Source: Lobosporangium transversale
Taxonomy: Eukaryota
NCBI RefSeq assembly: GCF_002105155.1
Contig: NW_019028988.1
Location: 558,001-622,000 of the forward strand
Direction of reading: 5' to 3'
Length of the DNA: 64,000 nt
A model generated the notes under the pieces. That model was not told where the DNA came from. It did not search any database and was given only the letters and a program-made list of their open reading frames with translations. Positions 47,989-62,507 of the stretch are shown piece after piece; position 1 is the first letter of the stretch; each line of letters begins with the position of its first letter. A program made the position numbers and the translations under genes.

Positions 47989-49661
47989 GAAAATAAGTAT
48001 AGCAACAATTATCTCTTTTGTTTGATTACTTTACCTTGAATGTAATTCCCAAATGTTCCTCAACATCCTCACTATTAGCATCCTGCCCGTACCAAAGAGG
48101 ATTCACCTGAGCTTTGCCACCTGCCGTCAGCAGTGCCTCAGACTCCCCGGATGGTCGAGGACTTGACCCAGCGGTGTTTATATCTGGCGCTGAGAGTGTA
48201 TTTGCATTTGAACTGCCCGGGATAGTAATGCCTTCAACACTCCGAATAGATGGTGCTGGCGAGCTGACACGTGAAGCAGGACGAAGAGGCGGTGTTGAAG
48301 GCGGTGTAGTTGCTGAAGGGGATGACCGATAAAATCCAAAAATGCTGGTGTTGGACCATGATTTTCCGAATCTAAATGTGGAAGTTTGCTGAGGCGGTCA
48401 AAAGAAAATAACGAGTCGATGCATATTTGAAGAAGGAGCGATTAGAATAAGATTGATATGAAATGCTTTTTGGCTAAACGAGGATAAACCAAAATAATAA
48501 AAAAAAAGGAAAGGGCCTGTCTCTTTACCTTTCGCTTCCGTGCTTCTTCTTCTTCCCGTCGGTCTAATAATGAGCTCATGCTTGCACTATCGTATCCGGT
48601 TATTTGTAACACATGGTTCCAAACCGCTTTGAGGTCTTCATCTCGAATATCACTGGCCACCAGCTGGTCCTCGAACGTTATCATAGAATGTGTTATCAGT
48701 CCTTTATATCTCTCTCGTACACTCCTCACGATCTGATCAATATTCTGGAACCCGACTCCTGTTTTACTCAGTGGCAAATAATGAATCCCATCCAAGGCTC
48801 GTTCCAATGTCATGTCCTTCTCAAAATTCCAACCAAGGACCCAGGATTCGAAAAACTCTTCTAGTCGCCGCTGTAATGGTCTTGTATTCCCATTATGTGC
48901 TATGACGAGACTTTCCATAGTTCCATTGGCAACCTTGTACATCGCATAAGCCTGTCGAAGTAGTGCTGAAACAATTGCATCATGGATCTCATGCTCTAAA
49001 TATTCAATCACCACGCGGTACTTTCCATCAGCACCCTTAATAGATCGTCTGATTGTTCCAAGTTCTATACACTGAGTCGAACCGACACCCCAGACCGATG
49101 TAGGGACATGGTATCAAGATAAACCAGTCAGATTTAAGGTGCTTTACTGTTGTCATTTTATGGAGAGTATCTGTAGTGTGAGCCTACCAAATGCAGCCAA
49201 TATCCTGGCTCGGCTTCATAAAATACCAGTCGGTTTTTCTGAGAATGCACGTTCTCGCATGGGGCCGTGGGTGAGAATATCCTATTGCACGTTATGATCA
49301 AGGTCAAGGTCAAGGTCAAAGGTCAAAGGCTGTCAAGCGCCAGCCATCTCTTGGTTTTTTTCGTCACGAAAAATTATTTCGAAACCTTCTCATCCATTGC
49401 GCTGGGTCTTGGTTACCGTGCAAAGTTGACCAGTCCTTGTGCTAAACCAATATTTCGCATCTTCACATCCATGGACACGGTCTTTCGAGCCACATAATAG
49501 AGTAATTGTTCATGTTGTGTCTCGTCAGTAGGTCCAAATTCAGGGTTGTAGATGCAAAAGTAGCCTAAAGAAGATGAAGTGGAAGCTGGTCCTGAGGATG
49601 ATGACGATGATGAGGGTCCTACTGCAGGTTTGGGCGAGGTTGCGCCAGATGTGCCGTACAT
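46956..49661 (-). CDS. CCZ1: Vacuolar fusion protein CCZ1 (Mon1-Ccz1 Rab7/Ypt7 GEF subunit), multi-exon
   Basis: LGYFCIYNPEFGPTDETQHEQLLYY..KMRNIGLAQGLVNFAR, LLRQAYAMYKVANG, GIHYLPL, RFVYFNKMNLAIK and STLVEVE|DEVRKLTSLYF match the Ccz1 longin-domain pattern. Confidence 0.88.
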
Positions 49662-50272
49662 TGAGAGTGCCGCTCTAGGCTACCAAGAAAAGGTTAAAAA
49701 AAAAAAAAAAAAGTAATGAAAGAATGCAAGGCAAGAGCAAACATTTTTAGCAGCCCCAAATGTGACGCCCCGAAAACCATGTCATAATCAGGACGCGACC
49801 TTTTTTTTTCTTTTTTAGCGCACTAAACAAATGGTCACGATAATAGATATCACAGTATGGAGAAGGAAAGCATGGTTCTCAATTTCATTTATTGTCCTAC
49901 ATATTGGGTGGACAATAATCTATAATGGATTATGATGCCAAATCCAGCCCTTTTTCCATTTAAGGGTATTATGTTTCATGTCTGTACGTACAAGACATGT
50001 GTCCGTTTTGTGGCTTTTACTCCGACACTTGTCCTGAAATTTGAATTGACATCAAATCCATCGAAATTTTAACAATGTCATCATGGCATGCTAAAGATCT
50101 CTTTCTTTCTTCTTTATTTTACGCCTTCATTCCTCCATACATTCATATACACAATAAAACAATAAAACCTACAATACACAGAGTAGACTTGCCCTCTCCC
50201 CTGACTAAAACTGAGAAAAATAACGGCACATTCGCATTTTCAAAGGTTCATTCCTGCTTGCTCACTTTCAAA

Positions 50273-53200
50273 ATGACAAACAACAACGAAAAGATTTTAT
50301 CCAATTTCACCTGCATGGATTTGGAACAAAGCACCAGTCAGACGAAGCCAACCAAGTCAAGTACTCGCACTGGATCCACTCGTGCAGCACCGAGGAGAAA
50401 AAGAGTTATTCTGACTGACGAAACGACTCCAGAGCCTTCACCAGTGGCACAGACTGCTAGAGTTAGTGCAAAGTCTTTTAAGCGCCCTAGGCGTTGTGAG
50501 GCTGATTCTTTATCCTCAAATGTCCTTCACTCCGGTCCATTGACAGAAGAAGAGCTGGCCCTGGCGAACGCACGGAAGGAGTCGGCGAGAAGTGTGCTGC
50601 AGATGATTTTAGATGATCCAGATTCATCGACGACAGTGAATCAATATAAGACACAGCTCCGGCTGTGGGAGGTATGTTGGATCATCAAAATGTCGCTATG
50701 AGCTATCTCAGACAGGCTATCAAACTAGACGACTTGGCTAATTCTCTTTTTTGTTTTTAGCAATACTGCAATGAAAATTATCAAGGTGACTGTAGCGTCG
50801 ATGCGAAACGCATGCTTGAATACTTCACAACGGTTGTCTTCAAGCGAACAGTAAAGCGATTGATCGGCACAGATCGTTGCTACCGTGGCGCTATTGGGTA
50901 TGCCCAGCAGGGTGGAGGAGATTCTTCGAATTCTCAGGCTGGGGAAGACGCAGTCTATGAGGGAGAAGAGATCGACGAATTAGTCGAGGCAGATATCGAC
51001 GAACATGAACTAAGCGACATGGAGCAGAGACTGGAGACATTAGATAACAGCGAGCAAGTTGATGACGACGACGGCCAAAGCATAGACCAAGGTCAACAAC
51101 AGGGACAGGGTCAGGGACAGGGTCAGGAACAGGATCAGGAACGGAGACAGGGTCAGGGACAGGGACAGGAACAAGGACAGGAACAGGAACAGGATGAAGA
51201 TCTGGAGCTTCAGCTGAGGTCATTGGCACAGAGAGGTAAGAAGGCTCCTCCCTCCTGGGATAATATGGAGCCACCTGAAGGAGTCGACCCACATCAATGG
51301 CAGATTGATATAGCATTGAATGATGAGGAGCGAGCATCACATGAAGCTGTAACTGTTGGGGGTTCAAGCAAGAACATCACGCCGAAGCGGAAGACTGCAG
51401 CCGTTATCAGGACTGAAAATGAAAGAGAACAAGGTATGTAAAGATAACCATGTATTAATATATAAATTGTTATACAGTACTGGGATCCAAACCTTTGGGA
51501 AGGCTCCGCCATCACGCGTACCCCAGGTGACAAGACACCATGGCCGCAACTCAGTGTTAATTATCAATATAAATAGCCTACTAAATTATGACTTAATAAA
51601 CCATTCCTTAATCCTGCATCCACCTTAATGTATCTTTGATTGTTACAATTTACACTAATGGTTGATACTTTTTATTATATATACAATTACTTTTTTTTTT
51701 TTTTTTTTTTTTTTTTGGATATACTTTTGCGTTTGTAGTTATCCTGCAAGCACCAGAGGACAAACATGGCAGCAAAATTGTCTTTGTTCCTCTCACGCTG
51801 GGGACAGTCGCAAATGTTAAGAAGGCTTTGCAATACTTATGGAGGCAACAGTCTTCTTCGACAGCTCCGTATCCCAATCCCGCCCCAAACCCAAGAACGG
51901 ATGTACCACTAGCGGAGGCGATCAAAAATTATGGAGAGAAACTTGTCCATCACAAAGTAACGACAGGCACCTTATCCCGCACTGCCACCTGTGCCGTACG
52001 AGAACCTTACAACACTAAAATGTACCTGCGTATGTTGGCCTTTACATGGCGCATGCTTCCGACGGTTGGAGTAAGCGGCAGGCGACCTTACGACAGTGTT
52101 ACAAGATTTCAGTATATGAGGGAGAGGCTATGCCTCCTTGCACGCCATCATATGTTGCTGCGGGATGAGGACATCCGAAACTTGAACCTGGCTAACACAT
52201 TCAATATTCAGACCCGTCACCCCGCGCCAGGGTCAAAGCTGGCGTCGGGGCTTGTCTTCTGCATCACACGTGGAAAGACAAACCATAAAGGTGTCGAACT
52301 CTATGCGACAGCTTATCGACATAAGCTGTTCTTAAGGTGCACCGTGGGCGGGTTTGCATTTTATATGCTAGAACGGTTCCAGGTAAATGATGCCGTCAGT
52401 CTTGACGCGAGCGTATGATTTTTTCTCATTCAATTACACAAAGTGACATATATCCTTATTTTTTTTTTTCCCTATTGTAGGTGTTCAAGGAGCCTCTTCC
52501 CAATTTTGCGGACCCTGACGAGTGGTACAGCATCAAGGTGCTAACAGGGGGTGGAACAAGCCAAGAACGGTTAGAGAACCGAAAGGAAGCGCTTGTTGGC
52601 CGAACCCAAATGAGCACTACGGCGGCTGTAATGCGTGCCTGCGACGTGCATTCGGCCAAAATTACGCACTCTGGCCGACATGCAGGGGTCTCGGAAGCCT
52701 ACGAAAGAGGCTTAAGCCTGGACGATATTCGCCACTTGGGAAGGTGGGTCATGGGGCAAATGGAGAACTTCTATGCTCCAAAAAACCCAACCAGGGGCGC
52801 TTTTTGTATGGCTCAGTTTGGACCGAATGAGCCTTACTTTATCGAGCGTGATTTGGTCACCCCGCCCTTAGAGCTCCAGCGTCTGGTCTTTCCTTGGATT
52901 GAGGAAAATTTTGATAAAGATATGCCGGAGAGAGCTGACTCCTGGAGAGAGGAGTGCGCCAAAGAAATGCTGGGGGTCGATCCAAATGTCCCGACAGACG
53001 AAGACATTTTTTGGACGCCAATCGAGAAGAAGACGAGCTCGAAACGATTGACCCGTGCCTTCAGCACTGACTCCCTTGTTACACGCATTGGGTTCCTCAA
53101 ACTTCTTGTGCGTATGAGGCGAGTAATCCTTCAGGATGCAGTGCTCTTTTTGAAGCCGAACGACAAGGGGAAAATGTTGGAGAACAAACTCCTCGAGTCG

Positions 53201-54109
53201 TTACCAGAAATCTTTGGTTGCCAGCTCTTTCTGGATTTCCAACATCAATTGCTTCGGGCCATCGACGTACATCGCCGACAAGCAGGCATCATCCAAGCGG
53301 ATGTGCCAGTTAATGCGCAAACTATGGTAAGCGCCATTAACACGTTGTCGGTAGAGGCGCGGGTCTTTCATCAACTCCAGCATGAGACGGTCCAGAAGCT
53401 CGAGGCCCTATCCACCCTTGTGACAGAGCAACAGGAGCAACAGAGGCAGCAACAGGAGCAAATCCACTTACTTCTCCAATCGCTGCAGCAGCAACAAAGC
53501 GCAAATGTGCGGCAGCCTTTTCCATATCATGTGCAGTCTTGCCCGCCCTTTGTGTTTAATCCTTCTCCATTGGCGCCAGCACAGAGCCGCCTAGCTTCTT
53601 TTCCTTCGGTTCCTCAGGCTCCTACTACGCAGGGTCTATATCAAGCTCGCCAGGCCACTCCACCGCAACAGCAGCCATTATTTTCCAACCAATTGCCACC
53701 ATGTCCTCAGCAACAGCCATATCAACATAGCCATGTGCAGGCTCCAATGACCTCAGAGCAGACACAACGATTGCCGGAAGATGAAAGGTATAAAGGCTAC
53801 CTCATGAAAGGCGATGGCAAGCAATTGACGGTCAGGGAAGCATGGGATGAATTCCGTGGGCCCGTTGCTCAGGCAAAGCAGGAAAATCACAAATGGCCAT
53901 TCACAGAGGCGCGTCACAAGGCATTCAGGCGCAGGCGTCAAATTTTCGATCTGATAAAGAATATTGCCGAAAAACAGAAGCGAGACTTCGAAGAGGTAGT
54001 AGACGCACTGACAGCTCAGTACAAGGGTCGGACAATCAATTCCATTCGACTAGAGCTTCTGAAAGACACCGGGAATGACGAAGGCTGCCACCAAGATGCG
54101 GACGAGTAG
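50273..54109 (+). CDS. Crypton tyrosine recombinase (NDC10_II-like YR plus GCR1_C-like domain), copy 1; exons 50273-50671, 50761-51433, 51739-52382, 52481-54109 (1114 aa)
   Basis: Exon lengths sum to 3345 nt, in frame. Catalytic motifs LLRDEDIR (R), RGKTN (K), KITHSGRHAG (HxxR), HLGRW (W) and MENFY (Y). C-terminus YLMK..LTVREAWDEF..KW..AFRRRRQIFDLI is GCR1_C-like. Start codon is uncertain. Confidence 0.9.
51088..51193 (+). repeat. Hexamer repeat (CAGGGT/CAGGGA/CAGGAA) encoding a GQ/EQ tract in the recombinase; also at 55855-55960
   Basis: QGQQQGQGQGQGQEQDQERRQGQGQGQEQGQEQEQ. Confidence 0.85.
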
Positions 54110-54543
54110 ATGAGTAAGGGTAATTTTTTTTTTTCTTTTTTTTTTTTATATATACATATATATATATCCTCGGATACAAATTTAAGCAATAAAGCACAAA
54201 GTAGTGATGGTGTCGGAAATACCAAGACATGAACTGAGCTACAAGAGGCAGAAAACTGTTGGCTGCATCCTTGAGCCAAAAGAGGCTGAGAAAATACAAT
54301 GTACAAGCAATCCATTGTCGTGAAATTTGTGATATTCCAAGGTGTTTAGCATAAGTATCATCCAGGAAAAAGCATTATCGTCAACATTATTAACAAGACA
54401 AAACACCATCAAAGCACTATCAAAGCATTTTTGACTCGACTCGGCTACCAACGCACTATAACAGAAATAATTGAATACTTCATCAATATAAAAACTGTCA
54501 TGTTTAATCATTAACACTGTCTCTACCATAAAAAGATTTTGTC

Positions 54544-54594
54544 TATTTCGCTTCACAAATCCATTTTGTGGAAAAAGATTTGTGAAGCGAAATA
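54544..54594. repeat. 18-bp perfect inverted repeat with 15-bp spacer near the element right end (also 59296-59346)
   Basis: TATTTCGCTTCACAAATC (54544-54561) / GATTTGTGAAGCGAAATA (54577-54594). Confidence 0.95.
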
Positions 54595-54620
54595 TAAAAA
54601 TTTTGTGACTTGGTATCCTT

Positions 54621-54667
54621 CTGTGTCCACCTGTGTCCGCCTGTGTCCATCTGAATGGACACAGGTG
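54621..54667. repeat. Three 10-bp-spaced CTGTGTCC direct repeats plus one inverted copy forming an 11-bp hairpin (also 59373-59419)
   Basis: ctgtgtccac ctgtgtccgc ctgtgtccat ctga atggacacaggtg. Confidence 0.95.
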
Positions 54668-54683
54668 AGCAATTTCGTTTCAC

Positions 54684-56427
54684 AATCTATAATGGATTAT
54701 GATGCCAAATCCAGCCCTTTTTCCATTTAAGGGTATTATGTTTCATGTCTGTACGTACAAGACATGTGTCCGTTTTGTGGCTTTTACTCCGACACTTGTC
54801 CTGAAATTTGAATTGACATCAAATCCATCGAAATTTTAACAATGTCATCATGGCATGCTAAAGATCTCTTTCTTTCTTCTTTATTTTACGCCTTCATTCC
54901 TCCATACATTCATATACACAATAAAACAATAAAACCTACAATACACAGAGTAGACTTGCCCTCTCCCCTGACTAAAACTGAGAAAAATAACGGCACATTC
55001 GCATTTTCAAAGGTTCATTCCTGCTTGCTCACTTTCAAAATGACAAACAACAACGAAAAGATTTTATCCAATTTCACCTGCATGGATTTGGAACAAAGCA
55101 CCAGTCAGACGAAGCCAACCAAGTCAAGTACTCGCACTGGATCCACTCGTGCAGCACCGAGGAGAAAAAGAGTTATTCTGACTGACGAAACGACTCCAGA
55201 GCCTTCACCAGTGGCACAGACTGCTAGAGTTAGTGCAAAGTCTTTTAAGCGCCCTAGGCGTTGTGAGGCTGATTCTTTATCCTCAAATGTCCTTCACTCC
55301 GGTCCATTGACAGAAGAAGAGCTGGCCCTGGCGAACGCACGGAAGGAGTCGGCGAGAAGTGTGCTGCAGATGATTTTAGATGATCCAGATTCATCGACGA
55401 CAGTGAATCAATATAAGACACAGCTCCGGCTGTGGGAGGTATGTTGGATCATCAAAATGTCGCTATGAGCTATCTCAGACAGGCTATCAAACTAGACGAC
55501 TTGGCTAATTCTCTTTTTTGTTTTTAGCAATACTGCAATGAAAATTATCAAGGTGACTGTAGCGTCGATGCGAAACGCATGCTTGAATACTTCACAACGG
55601 TTGTCTTCAAGCGAACAGTAAAGCGATTGATCGGCACAGATCGTTGCTACCGTGGCGCTATTGGGTATGCCCAGCAGGGTGGAGGAGATTCTTCGAATTC
55701 TCAGGCTGGGGAAGACGCAGTCTATGAGGGAGAAGAGATCGACGAATTAGTCGAGGCAGATATCGACGAACATGAACTAAGCGACATGGAGCAGAGACTG
55801 GAGACATTAGATAACAGCGAGCAAGTTGATGACGACGACGGCCAAAGCATAGACCAAGGTCAACAACAGGGACAGGGTCAGGGACAGGGTCAGGAACAGG
55901 ATCAGGAACGGAGACAGGGTCAGGGACAGGGACAGGAACAAGGACAGGAACAGGAACAGGATGAAGATCTGGAGCTTCAGCTGAGGTCATTGGCACAGAG
56001 AGGTAAGAAGGCTCCTCCCTCCTGGGATAATATGGAGCCACCTGAAGGAGTCGACCCACATCAATGGCAGATTGATATAGCATTGAATGATGAGGAGCGA
56101 GCATCACATGAAGCTGTAACTGTTGGGGGTTCAAGCAAGAACATCACGCCGAAGCGGAAGACTGCAGCCGTTATCAGGACTGAAAATGAAAGAGAACAAG
56201 GTATGTAAAGATAACCATGTATTAATATATAAATTGTTATACAGTACTGGGATCCAAACCTTTGGGAAGGCTCCGCCATCACGCGTACCCCAGGTGACAA
56301 GACACCATGGCCGCAACTCAGTGTTAATTATCAATATAAATAGCCTACTAAATTATGACTTAATAAACCATTCCTTAATCCTGCATCCACCTTAATGTAT
56401 CTTTTGATTTTGTAAATTTTTACTTTT

Positions 56428-56469
<42 letters not shown>

Positions 56470-59443
56470 GATATACTTTTGCGTTTGTAGTTATCCTGCA
56501 AGCACCAGAGGACAAACATGGCAGCAAAATTGTCTTTGTTCCTCTCACGCTGGGGACAGTCGCAAATGTTAAGAAGGCTTTGCAATACTTATGGAGGCAA
56601 CAGTCTTCTTCGACAGCTCCGTATCCCAATCCCGCCCCAAACCCAAGAACGGATGTACCACTAGCGGAGGCGATCAAAAATTATGGAGAGAAACTTGTCC
56701 ATCACAAAGTAACGACAGGCACCTTATCCCGCACTGCCACCTGTGCCGTACGAGAACCTTACAACACTAAAATGTACCTGCGTATGTTGGCCTTTACATG
56801 GCGCATGCTTCCGACGGTTGGAGTAAGCGGCAGGCGACCTTACGACAGTGTTACAAGATTTCAGTATATGAGGGAGAGGCTATGCCTCCTTGCACGCCAT
56901 CATATGTTGCTGCGGGATGAGGACATCCGAAACTTGAACCTGGCTAACACATTCAATATTCAGACCCGTCACCCCGCGCCAGGGTCAAAGCTGGCGTCGG
57001 GGCTTGTCTTCTGCATCACACGTGGAAAGACAAACCATAAAGGTGTCGAACTCTATGCGACAGCTTATCGACATAAGCTGTTCTTAAGGTGCACCGTGGG
57101 CGGGTTTGCATTTTATATGCTAGAACGGTTCCAGGTAAATGATGCCGTCAGTCTTGACGCGAGCGTATGATTTTTTCTCATTCAATTACACAAAGTGACA
57201 TATATCCTTATTTTTTTTTTTCCCTATTGTAGGTGTTCAAGGAGCCTCTTCCCAATTTTGCGGACCCTGACGAGTGGTACAGCATCAAGGTGCTAACAGG
57301 GGGTGGAACAAGCCAAGAACGGTTAGAGAACCGAAAGGAAGCGCTTGTTGGCCGAACCCAAATGAGCACTACGGCGGCTGTAATGCGTGCCTGCGACGTG
57401 CATTCGGCCAAAATTACGCACTCTGGCCGACATGCAGGGGTCTCGGAAGCCTACGAAAGAGGCTTAAGCCTGGACGATATTCGCCACTTGGGAAGGTGGG
57501 TCATGGGGCAAATGGAGAACTTCTATGCTCCAAAAAACCCAACCAGGGGCGCTTTTTGTATGGCTCAGTTTGGACCGAATGAGCCTTACTTTATCGAGCG
57601 TGATTTGGTCACCCCGCCCTTAGAGCTCCAGCGTCTGGTCTTTCCTTGGATTGAGGAAAATTTTGATAAAGATATGCCGGAGAGAGCTGACTCCTGGAGA
57701 GAGGAGTGCGCCAAAGAAATGCTGGGGGTCGATCCAAATGTCCCGACAGACGAAGACATTTTTTGGACGCCAATCGAGAAGAAGACGAGCTCGAAACGAT
57801 TGACCCGTGCCTTCAGCACTGACTCCCTTGTTACACGCATTGGGTTCCTCAAACTTCTTGTGCGTATGAGGCGAGTAATCCTTCAGGATGCAGTGCTCTT
57901 TTTGAAGCCGAACGACAAGGGGAAAATGTTGGAGAACAAACTCCTCGAGTCGTTACCAGAAATCTTTGGTTGCCAGCTCTTTCTGGATTTCCAACATCAA
58001 TTGCTTCGGGCCATCGACGTACATCGCCGACAAGCAGGCATCATCCAAGCGGATGTGCCAGTTAATGCGCAAACTATGGTAAGCGCCATTAACACGTTGT
58101 CGGTAGAGGCGCGGGTCTTTCATCAACTCCAGCATGAGACGGTCCAGAAGCTCGAGGCCCTATCCACCCTTGTGACAGAGCAACAGGAGCAACAGAGGCA
58201 GCAACAGGAGCAAATCCACTTACTTCTCCAATCGCTGCAGCAGCAACAAAGCGCAAATGTGCGGCAGCCTTTTCCATATCATGTGCAGTCTTGCCCGCCC
58301 TTTGTGTTTAATCCTTCTCCATTGGCGCCAGCACAGAGCCGCCTAGCTTCTTTTCCTTCGGTTCCTCAGGCTCCTACTACGCAGGGTCTATATCAAGCTC
58401 GCCAGGCCACTCCACCGCAACAGCAGCCATTATTTTCCAACCAATTGCCACCATGTCCTCAGCAACAGCCATATCAACATAGCCATGTGCAGGCTCCAAT
58501 GACCTCAGAGCAGACACAACGATTGCCGGAAGATGAAAGGTATAAAGGCTACCTCATGAAAGGCGATGGCAAGCAATTGACGGTCAGGGAAGCATGGGAT
58601 GAATTCCGTGGGCCCGTTGCTCAGGCAAAGCAGGAAAATCACAAATGGCCATTCACAGAGGCGCGTCACAAGGCATTCAGGCGCAGGCGTCAAATTTTCG
58701 ATCTGATAAAGAATATTGCCGAAAAACAGAAGCGAGACTTCGAAGAGGTAGTAGACGCACTGACAGCTCAGTACAAGGGTCGGACAATCAATTCCATTCG
58801 ACTAGAGCTTCTGAAAGACACCGGGAATGACGAAGGCTGCCACCAAGATGCGGACGAGTAGATGAGTAAGGGTAATTTTTTTTTTTCTTTTTTTTTTTTA
58901 TATATACATATATATATATCCTCGGATACAAATTTAAGCAATAAAGCACAAAGTAGTGATGGTGTCGGAAATACCAAGACATGAACTGAGCTACAAGAGG
59001 CAGAAAACTGTTGGCTGCATCCTTGAGCCAAAAGAGGCTGAGAAAATACAATGTACAAGCAATCCATTGTCGTGAAATTTGTGATATTCCAAGGTGTTTA
59101 GCATAAGTATCATCCAGGAAAAAGCATTATCGTCAACATTATTAACAAGACAAAACACCATCAAAGCACTATCAAAGCATTTTTGACTCGACTCGGCTAC
59201 CAACGCACTATAACAGAAATAATTGAATACTTCATCAATATAAAAACTGTCATGTTTAATCATTAACACTGTCTCTACCATAAAAAGATTTTGTCTATTT
59301 CGCTTCACAAATCCATTTTGTGGAAAAAGATTTGTGAAGCGAAATATAAAAATTTTGTGACTTGGTATCCTTCTGTGTCCACCTGTGTCCGCCTGTGTCC
59401 ATCTGAATGGACACAGGTGAGCAATTTCGTTTCACAATCTATA
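54684..59443 (+). mobile_element. Crypton unit 2 (4752-bp period), tandem head-to-tail copy
   Basis: Bounded by AATCTATA at 54684-54691 and 59436-59443. Translated ORFs are identical to unit 1; the only difference seen is in the poly-T region of intron 2. Confidence 0.9.
55040..58861 (+). CDS. Crypton tyrosine recombinase, copy 2; exons 55040-55438, 55528-56200, 56491-57134, 57233-58861
   Basis: ORF translations identical to copy 1. Confidence 0.9.
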
Positions 59444-59559
59444 GCAGATTGGGGAGGGTGTGAGGCATGATACAAATATAGGGGAAAAAAAAAAGAAAAC
59501 GGATTTTTTTTTTTGCAAAGAGGTTCAAAGAAGGTTGAAATGTACACGGCGGGATTATT

Positions 59560-60308
59560 TTACAACGTCCACTGTTGGATGTCCTCGGCGGTCGTGACCG
59601 TTCTAAGGAGAGAGAGGTTTATAAAAAGCAGTTTAGTATTTGCCATAAAATTTTTTTACAGGATGCAATTGCTCAAGATGGTTCTAGTGACATACTTCAC
59701 AAAATCTAGCGGGTATTCTTTTCGTAGCAAATTGGCCAACACCTTGCCGGGACCAAATGAAATATAGTCATGCACATTTTGTTGGTCTCGCAAGTATCCG
59801 ATACTTGTGTGCCATTGAACAGCTCCCGTAACCTGTCGCACAAGCAAATCTGAGATATCCTCAATCTTTGTGATCTGTGTTTTGAAAATGGTCATAGAGT
59901 ATCAGATTATTTAGTCCTCCGTTTTGTGTTCTTTATCCCATTGCCAATTTTGACAGAGCCACTTACAGGTCTTGCTGTAACATTTGAAATCACATCGATA
60001 GTTGGCTTTTTGAATTGAATATCTTTGAGTGCCTCTTTCATTGCATCTGCTGCAGACTGCATTAGACTACAATGAAAGGGTGCTCTATAAGAAAATAAGC
60101 GTATAAAGAAGTGGTAATCAGTACAACCAGAGGACTAAGCTTCTCAACTTTTTGGGTACGCAGGAAATAAGGAGATGTCGGTCAAAAGACATACGAGACA
60201 GGAAGATCTACAGCGCGTGCTGCAATCTTTTGTGCTTGAAGAACTCTTGATGCATGGTCGACCCCTCGGACTGTGCCGCTGATCACAACTTGAAATGACT
60301 AAAATTTG

Positions 60309-60351
<43 letters not shown>

Positions 60352-62507
60352 TTAAATACGATTTTGTCCAGATAAAGGATTGGCTCTAAGCGATCAAATG
60401 CAAATAATGTTGATCCGGTTGGACATACGCTGTTAACGTTGGCAATCTCAGCCAATTCACCACCTGGTAGTGTCGCCTTGATTTCATCAACAGCCTTTAC
60501 AAGCGCTTCCAACTTTCCAGGTCGCACAACTAGTGCTGACATTGCTGTTGCTTTGTTGGTCACTGCTTCTGTCATTGCTTCGCCGCGGAGCCTCTAGAAA
60601 GAGAGGAAAAATAGTATATGAGCGACTTTGAGTTCCACTTACTAGTGCTTAAAATGCACAATAACATAATAAAAATAAAAATAAATAAAATTAAAAAAAA
60701 GTTGCTATTGCGATGTAGAACTTACGACAAGTTTAACAGCATCCTGGAGACCCACGGCCTTTGTTGCGACGAGTGCAGAATATTCACCCAATGAGTGACC
60801 CAGAGCATATTTGCATGATTCTTCAACCTTGAATCCACGTTCACTCTCCAAGACTCTTAGCATAGCAATTGATGTGGTAAGAATGGCAGGTTGTGCATTT
60901 TCTGTTCTGGTCAAATCTTCCTGTGAGCCTTCAAACATGACATGCTTCAGTGTGCCCTGGAGAGCTTCATCTGCCTCATCCACGACCTGACGCGCCACCG
61001 GATAGGCATCATATAGATCCTTGCCCATCCCAACAAATTGCGATCCCTGACCTATTGAGCGAAGATATGGCGAGAGAACGCAGGTTAAGTACGATAATCA
61101 TGCTTGATTGCAACTAAGCCCCATAAACTCTTTCTTCATCCACACAGCAATCCCGAATGTAAAAATAAAACAAGATTTAACAATCGCTCACTCGCAGTGC
61201 AGACGAGACGCAGATGGGAACAATAATAACGTCAGAAAATTTTCTACGCTTTCAAATAATCTCGTTCAAAATAAGGGAAAAAAAAGTAAAAAAGAACCAA
61301 TCTGCCTTTGGTATTAAGTAGCAAGTCAGTAAGTAACATCGTGAGAAAAAAAAATAGACTTTTTCATCTCTTCGAATTTCTCCCCAACCAAAAACAGTTC
61401 CCACGAGGGAGAGCAGTTGTTGGAGATACAATTTGAGATGAGCTTGGGGCTGAGCTTTACATCTTCCATTTATTTCTTTCCACGGGTGCTGTGTTCCGAT
61501 GTAAGTGTGTTGTAATATAATGTATTATTATGTTGTAATTTGTCTTGTTCCTGCACCTGAGATGGAAAAAGGCGTGATTTCATGGCAAAATAATAAACCA
61601 AGGTTCAAACTCCCGGCTCGTCTCTTTTTAGGCACTCCTTTTCCCAGTCACGAACTGATTAACTGACATGAGCTGCTCTTTCTGACTCTATGTCTCACAT
61701 GCATAAAGTGTCATCTTTTTTATCATTGCCCTGGTCTCCTGCCTGGATTTATTTACAGGATAGGATACCTTCCCCACATTTTTCTTTTTTCGTCATTTGG
61801 GTTTTCCCTTACTTCTCCCGTCAGTAATTGATTGTCAATGATCCTTTTTTTCTTTTTTTTTGTGGTTGCTGGCATATTTCATATGCACATCCTATTTGTT
61901 GCTCCTATTATCCCCAAGCCCTCAATATATTAATAAAACGAACCTGGAAAGAGGATTGCCCAATTATTATTATCGCCACCGGATGACGTCTAGTTGCATT
62001 CATTTAGTATAGAATTTTTTTTTTTTTTTTTTTTTTAGTCCAAGTAAAAATATTCGCGTGTTAATACACATAGAGATATAACAACACCTCTCGGACAAAC
62101 ACGAATGAAAAGAGGAAAAAAACACGAAAATAAAAAACATATTGATCCATTACCAATGATCTTCTATTGCGTGGGATAAATCTTGGCCGAGGAGCATTGG
62201 GGGTTGTGGCAGTTGTAGAAAGCGATGAAGACGTTGAGGAGGAAGCCAATGTGGTAGTTGTAGTAGCTGTTGCAGTGGATATCGTTGTAGCTGAGGAGCT
62301 TGAAGGTGAGTTTACAGTCGAGTTTGCAGTTGTGGTTGCTGTGGTTTTTGCTGAGGAAGCAAACGGTACTCTGGGGGTATTTGCTGTTGATACTATAGCA
62401 GGCGCGGCAGATCTGGAGACTGTAGCTGTTGTTGTTGGTTTTGACAAGATGGAGGCTATGGGTGCTGCCTTGTCAAGAATCGCTGAGCGGACGGTTGTGC
62501 AGGCCAT
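59560..62507 (-). CDS. MCT1: Mitochondrial malonyl-CoA:ACP transacylase (FabD/Mct1), about 8 exons; 5' exons 62507-62154, 61989-61944, then 61051 onward; last exon 59602-59560
   Basis: Spliced AILFPG|QGSQFVGMGKDLY, LTRTENAQPAIL, GHSLGEYSAL, IANVNS, APFHCSLM, LLVRQVTGAVQW and FGPGKVL. The Ser/Thr/Arg-rich N-terminal exon resembles a mitochondrial presequence (its assignment is inferred). Confidence 0.9.

Follow-up and report, generated by a model that had tools for sequence, protein, structure and literature searches.

A head-to-tail CryptonF dimer in Lobosporangium transversale with a probable circle joint at its middle junction

A tandem pair of CryptonF elements between two host genes

Two units of an intact, multi-copy CryptonF transposon lie head to tail in the window (the whole stretch of DNA that was analysed, 64 kb), where they occupy together 9519 bp (49917-59435), and the junction between them likely reproduces the end-to-end joint of a circular intermediate. 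The same 8-mer, AATCTATA, is found at 49917, 54684 and 59436, that is, at all three junctions, and the match around it continues across the junctions for 0 further bases on either side. Coordinates and unit comparison thus agree with the initial annotation, which had described a tandem Crypton dimer of 9519 bp with one 8-mer common to its three junctions. The features of the locus are as follows.

49413..49661, minus strand: first exon of the host gene left of the insertion (CCZ1/INTU longin-domain)
49917..54683, plus strand: Crypton unit 1, 4767 bp, the first 8-mer being taken as its start
54684..59435, plus strand: Crypton unit 2, 4752 bp, differing from unit 1 in a single patch of intron 2
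56402..56442 (versus 51634-51690 in unit 1), no strand: T-enriched patch beside the intron 2 poly-T run, the sole difference between the units
59656..61097, minus strand: exons of the host gene right of the insertion, an acyl transferase (Acyl_transf_1)

The insertion is intergenic, lying between two minus-strand genes about 255 bp upstream of the likely start codon of the longin-domain gene and about 210 bp from the likely stop of the acyl transferase gene. The T-enriched patch, which accounts for all of the 26 alignment columns in which the units differ and adjoins the poly-T run, is possibly a consensus error. As to the 8-mer, its count is ordinary (3 in 64 kb versus 2.32 expected), and was rejected as evidence by itself since 42 of 100 shuffles reach at least 3; where it lies is out of the ordinary, the p value of an 8-base match being about 2e-5 for a given register.

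Classification of the element and its relatives

The earlier assignment to the Cryptons is borne out by the domains and catalytic-type residues of the encoded recombinase and by the ends of the element. Each unit carries a CryptonF gene of 4 exons and three GT-AG introns, encoding 1114 amino acids with 0 internal stops.

50273..54109, plus strand: CryptonF recombinase gene of unit 1 (exons 50273-50671, 50761-51433, 51739-52382, 52481-54109)
about 53828-54010: GCR1_C domain in unit 1
55040..58861, plus strand: CryptonF recombinase gene of unit 2, intact (exons 55040-55438, 55528-56200, 56491-57134, 57233-58861)

In Pfam comparisons NDC10_II was detected with E-values of 9e-11 (exon 4) and 3.1e-05 (exon 3), and GCR1_C (PF12550) at the C-terminus with marginal scores (E 1.1e-4, 22.9 bits versus a cut-off of 23). 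The R, K, HxxR, W and Y motifs are present, and conserved in relatives; by motif analogy, we take R499, K537, H635, R638, W661 and Y670 to be the catalytic residues. There are no TIRs or long terminal repeats, a blastn comparison of unit and window returning only the second unit and one internal palindrome, and the terminal direct repeat is short (8 bases here, 6 in the related metagenomic locus L006). Named relatives are mostly from Mortierellaceae (27 matches in one search, 6 in another), and the element is a new member of CryptonF with relatives in this family. For one relative (P0030), atlas features point to NDC10_II, and a Tyr-recombinase cluster, 17% of whose members carry Phage_integrase, is among its atlas look-alikes at 0.94. 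Two structure models have pLDDT below 50 over most of the catalytic region, too weak to use, and PDB sequence searches returned chance or coiled-coil matches, with no recombinase match.

Two other classes were considered and rejected: a Starship, as none of the four exon pieces matched DUF3435 at E≤0.1 and the element has a single gene in 4.8 kb; and a domesticated Crypton gene of the Ndc10/Cbf2 or Gcr1 kind, in view of the catalytic motifs and the approximately 19 copies documented below.

Exon 2 of the recombinase gene includes a Gln/Gly/Glu-rich tandem repeat and acidic linker (51033-51218), and relatives carry unrelated low-complexity stretches at this place. In P0032, a 999-aa relative from Podila humilis, a stretch resembling Crypton exon 3 is joined to PF13516 and PF27087, a possible fusion or gene-model error.

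A young family of near-identical copies

The stretch is contained in 6 of the 7 listed sequencing runs (3 studies), and 4 of the 7 (X1, X3, X4 and X7) were analysed. Run X7 looks base-converted and was left out of depth and variant counts: between 47500 and 62000 it shows no changes other than G>A and C>T, whether in host DNA or in the element, and in its main contig the CpG sites at 52395-52409 appear converted. RIP-like mutation was rejected as an explanation of these changes, which affect host and element alike and have the appearance of a base-converted library. The element is at high depth in this run too.

Relative to the flank, contig depth was 19.5 (X1), 19.6 (X3) and 18.8 (X4) at the element ends and 13.5, 11.2 and 11.6, respectively, in the element middle. 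By this measure, which gives rough rather than exact copy numbers, about 19 near-identical copies of the family are present in X1, X3 and X4. Divergence of the family contigs from the window affects about 0.2% of positions, and the family is therefore young. Recent activity, as proposed earlier, is supported by the near-identical copies in 3 of 3 comparable runs, and the element is a mobile multi-copy family and not a domesticated gene.

Among 40 of the 103 rows of the substitution table, the high-depth family contigs differ from the window at at least 8 substitution sites and by one 3-base insertion; at 53197, run X1 has the letter of the window, unlike the other high-depth family contigs. 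Units 1 and 2 are identical at these sites. Such variants, shared by the units against the family majority, favour a local origin of the second unit over its derivation from a random member of the family.

Two further forms were seen by depth in X1, X3 and X4. An internal deletion form, lacking 52730-54237 (and 57482-58989) with the catalytic tyrosine region and GCR1_C, has depths of 5.3, 4.6 and 6.1, respectively, and is likely a non-autonomous subfamily. A diverged sister family, compared over 52037-52355, stands at about 2 copies by depth; it is about 92% alike, has lost 11 bases and carries a replacement of 74 bases.

Arms and spacers at the junctions

Each junction can be described as two short inverted arms around a spacer of 7 bases.

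49917..49931, plus strand: left junction (attL-like), AATC, spacer TATAATG, GATT; 8 of 11 arm positions complementary; the 8-mer lies at 49917-49924
54684..54698, plus strand: middle junction (predicted attP equivalent), right arm, spacer TATAATG, left arm; 8 of 11 positions complementary; present in the assembly only
59436..59450, plus strand: right junction (attR-like), AATC, spacer TATAGCA, host GATT; 7 of 11 positions complementary

The best dyad among the registers tested at the middle junction has arms of 11 bases that pair imperfectly (8/11) around a 7-base spacer; its inner arms, AATC and GATT, are perfect. Taken alone this dyad is not significant, as 9% of 3000 random host windows reach 8/11 when scanned in the same way. 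The pattern AATC-N7-GATT has three occurrences in 64 kb, exactly at the junctions, and the presence of GATT in the host at the fixed place of the right junction has a p value of about 0.004-0.006. The left and middle spacers are the same; the right spacer shares with them the first 4 bases only, and is likely host-derived.

The initial annotation had treated the 8-mer as the core of all three junctions and set it beside the overlap across which tyrosine recombinases exchange strands. It is probably not the overlap of exchange, and a core common to the whole family is not supported, given that a family contig begins at base 6 of the 8-mer and that the repeat of L006 has 6 bases; the 8-mer likely consists of the 4-base arm and the first 4 of the 7 spacer bases, and not of a fully shared overlap. 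The first base of the left-end family contig is 49922 in X4 and 54689 in X3, which is base 6 of the 8-mer and base 2 of the spacer. With an assembly by 31-letter words, such a start means that copies differ upstream of the base and agree after it, so that the 8-mer is not fixed across family copies. The last 6 bases of the spacer seem to travel with the left end; against this reading, contig starts depend on breaks in the 31-letter-word assembly, and one odd copy could account for them.

A metagenome scan gave 8 related loci, and no relative was found in genome_contigs (12 candidate stretches) or viral_contigs (14). Both element ends are present in 1 of the 8 loci and the right end in 3 of the 8. 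In L006 the ends are 4662 bp apart and the arms read AGTC and GACT; compared with AATC/GATT both arms have changed as a pair, which represents a single event between two elements. The left spacer of L006 begins TATAA, and its right spacer has only TA in common with it at the start. Unguided local alignment of the right ends of L006 and the window stops inside the 8-mer (59441 in the window, 4739 in L006). Since 24 4-base dyads with a spacer starting in TA occur in the window (about 2 expected per 5 kb), one such dyad in L006 is expected by chance, and the evidence lies only in where it stands and in how it matches the right end. The right ends of L004 and L002 lie in the same register, as found with a pattern that was written after the first two ends had been seen. 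On the host side the right arm is lacking in L006 (3/11), L004 (1/11) and L002 (2/11), and a two-armed target is thus not required. The left end of L003 is ambiguous, no element end was found in L001 and L008 and no identifiable end in L005 and L007, five loci being without a usable right end. Locus L001 also has, in and near its Crypton gene, two copies (90-285 and 1049-1246) of a palindromic, MITE-like repeat of about 180 bp that are 87% alike.

Origin of the tandem pair

The initial annotation had equated the middle junction with the junction of a circle. The layout is the one expected, and we consider this reading likely; the structure alone does not prove a circle, as other routes also give the core-unit-core-unit-core arrangement, and tandem transposon dimers as such are common. 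As for the course of events, we see an even chance that a circle from the same copy or its immediate lineage either re-integrated at the left junction or recombined by homology with the resident copy. In the first case, the tyrosine recombinase of the element would bind the AATC/GATT arms and exchange strands inside the 7-base spacer, with an overlap of 5-7 bases, and identity with the target would be needed only at the first one or two bases, as with IntDOT. The spacer of the circle would then become that of the new left end, and the spacer of the host that of the right end. The left junction of the resident copy would be the best target in the genome, because it fully matches the spacer of the circle and has both arms, and re-integration there would give a head-to-tail dimer. 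Host homologous recombination between the circle and the resident copy would lead to the same product. More tentatively, the two short inverted arms with their 7-base spacer could be the real att site of CryptonF, with one or two identical target bases needed and the spacer of the circle always found on the left, as in one-strand copy-out/copy-in; this wider proposal we hold to be less likely than not.

The structure of the pair cannot separate a circle from sister-chromatid exchange, in which the recombinase would connect one chromatid's right junction with its sister's left junction and so produce a dimer and an empty site with no circle. The same junction, identical units and shared minority variants are predicted by such an exchange, for which the inversions and translocations mediated by a Crypton at target sites in Chlamydomonas (PMC9977147, as far as its accessible text goes) offer a precedent. 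The empty-site joint that it should leave is absent among the contig pieces listed for X1, X3 and X4, but contigs drop rare forms, and this says little about its presence in the genome. We regard the route as unlikely.

It is improbable that the pair is an assembly artefact, with one unit at the locus and an assembler that looped via a junction elsewhere or was misled by chimeric reads. That the units are identical over more than 4.7 kb, with a sole difference resembling a homopolymer-side error, and that the family has about 19 copies would suit an artefact, as would the middle junction being known from the assembly alone, no spanning piece being found among the contig pieces listed. The duplication nevertheless ends exactly at the element ends with one core, and both units carry minority variants, when a collapsed repeat would tend to show the family majority. 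Read-derived contigs bear on the outer junctions. Single-copy depth extends up to the left junction, and X3 and X4 each have a single-copy contig, showing 0 other letters, that connects the last 30 letters of the element right end, core included, with the host, one letter below the bar for bridging. In both runs this right-flank contig starts at 59414, which indicates that the full 8-mer also stands at some other right end, with a different base after it. This other end is either the middle junction, whose reality the contig start fits, or another copy with a similar target, and the dimer is not thereby verified. Free circles are unlikely to have fooled the assembler, since circle-junction reads are so few in a Starship (36 versus 6959 terminal reads in the accessible text of 10.64898/2026.09.21.753150).

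Double insertion, in which an unrelated member of the family would have landed at the preferred site that the first already occupied, appears quite improbable for this pair, although it is the main source of DNA-transposon dimers in Drosophila, where it favours sites near a preferred target (10.1101/158386, accessible part), and although the site here has both arms. The units share non-majority variants that would often be missing in a random donor. Finally, host repair might have duplicated the unit via the 8-base microhomology, the recombinase being uninvolved; an 8-base direct repeat does flank the unit, and the product would look alike. With an active recombinase at hand and its sites exactly at the junctions, a host event ending exactly at both element ends would be less likely, and we judge this explanation very improbable.

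Comparison with known systems

CryptonF elements of fungi and oomycetes encode a recombinase domain with GCR1_C, lack TIRs, have direct repeats of 4-6 bp and are proposed to move as circles; most families measure 2.5-6 kb and have a few to about 20 copies (PMC3212892, accessible part). The element described here resembles them in its single gene with recombinase and GCR1_C, its lack of TIRs, its short direct repeats, its size and its copy number, and the listed repeats TAACTA, TACCTA and GATAAT resemble the letters found here. Relative to these descriptions it differs in that the tandem dimer exposes the end-to-end joint, and in that the repeat falls within an arm-spacer-arm site of which the spacer is shared only in part. 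CryptonF-1_cRei of Chlamydomonas reinhardtii is an active element whose copies rise despite clean excision (PMC9977147). Like the present element it has a short donor motif at one end with a near-identical target, and gene-proximal intergenic insertions; its motif, in contrast, is the 5-base CACCG/CAYCG, and the accessible text of the same report describes no dimer, circle or arm structure. Movement was observed for CryptonF-1_cRei, whereas here it is inferred.

For the Starship Hephaestus, a fungal tyrosine-recombinase transposon that likewise has short terminal homology to its target, a circle junction was found in reads and raises expression of the recombinase (PMC10104507, 10.64898/2026.09.21.753150, both in their accessible parts). 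Starships have a DUF3435 captain and cargo, unlike the 4.8-kb single-gene element with NDC10_II and GCR1_C described here.

The junctions also recall two bacterial systems. IntDOT of CTnDOT tolerates mismatched overlaps provided that 1-2 bases are identical at the first cut (PMC2817482, accessible part), and strand-biased circularizing elements (SEs), which copy out one strand, preferentially place the spacer of the circle at one end and that of the host at the other, between imperfect inverted repeats (PMC9345347, PMC10214605, accessible parts). Identity between partner spacers amounts to 4 of 7 bases here and to 2 at the start in L006, and the junction pattern, drawn from two elements and one contig start, may be said to resemble both systems. 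The likeness is mechanistic only, IntDOT and SEs being bacterial and multi-protein. Moreover, SEs take their spacer afresh from every donor flank, and it ends up on the right, whereas the spacer here is apparently family-fixed and at the left end. Head-to-tail transposon dimers with one target copy at the junction are also known to arise by double insertion, as for P elements (10.1101/158386, accessible part). In those cases DDE transposases duplicate the target; here the repeat likely stems from homology between element end and target.

[quoted passage not shown] Our literature search, which covered mostly titles and the beginnings of abstracts, with few subscription journals and no bioRxiv supplements, returned no Crypton dimer, no Crypton circle and no Crypton of Mortierellaceae. 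The present locus, with an intact, recently amplified single-gene element, is a useful test case for the circle model, and provides an exact junction that can be counted in reads as well as a specific arm-and-spacer model. If the att-site reading is true, the dimer would be a frozen attP, and a compact eukaryotic integrase of a single protein would have its first defined substrate; if one-strand copy-out/copy-in is true, it would explain how Cryptons gain copies despite clean excision. It is tempting to predict, by analogy, that unit 2, having the right end of an element upstream, may sit in a Starship-like activated expression context.

Subterminal motifs

Motifs and repeats inside the ends of the element are listed below.

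49994..50035, no strand: left-end GACA/TGTCC motifs, related to those at the right end, aligning with the left ends of L003 and L006
59296..59346, no strand: perfect inverted repeat of 18 bp, its arms 15 nt apart (in unit 1 at 54544-54594)
59375..59415, no strand: subterminal motifs, GTGTCC three times in direct and GGACAC once in inverted orientation

The 18-bp inverted repeat lies about 90 bp inside the right end. The TTCGCTTCACAA of one arm of this repeat is also present in L006, in which no perfect palindrome of at least 9 bp was found. The last motif of the 59375..59415 group starts 27 bp before the arm, and a GGACA motif is found 25 bp before the arm in L002, L004 and L006. The GTGTCC/GGACAC motifs are candidate accessory binding sites.
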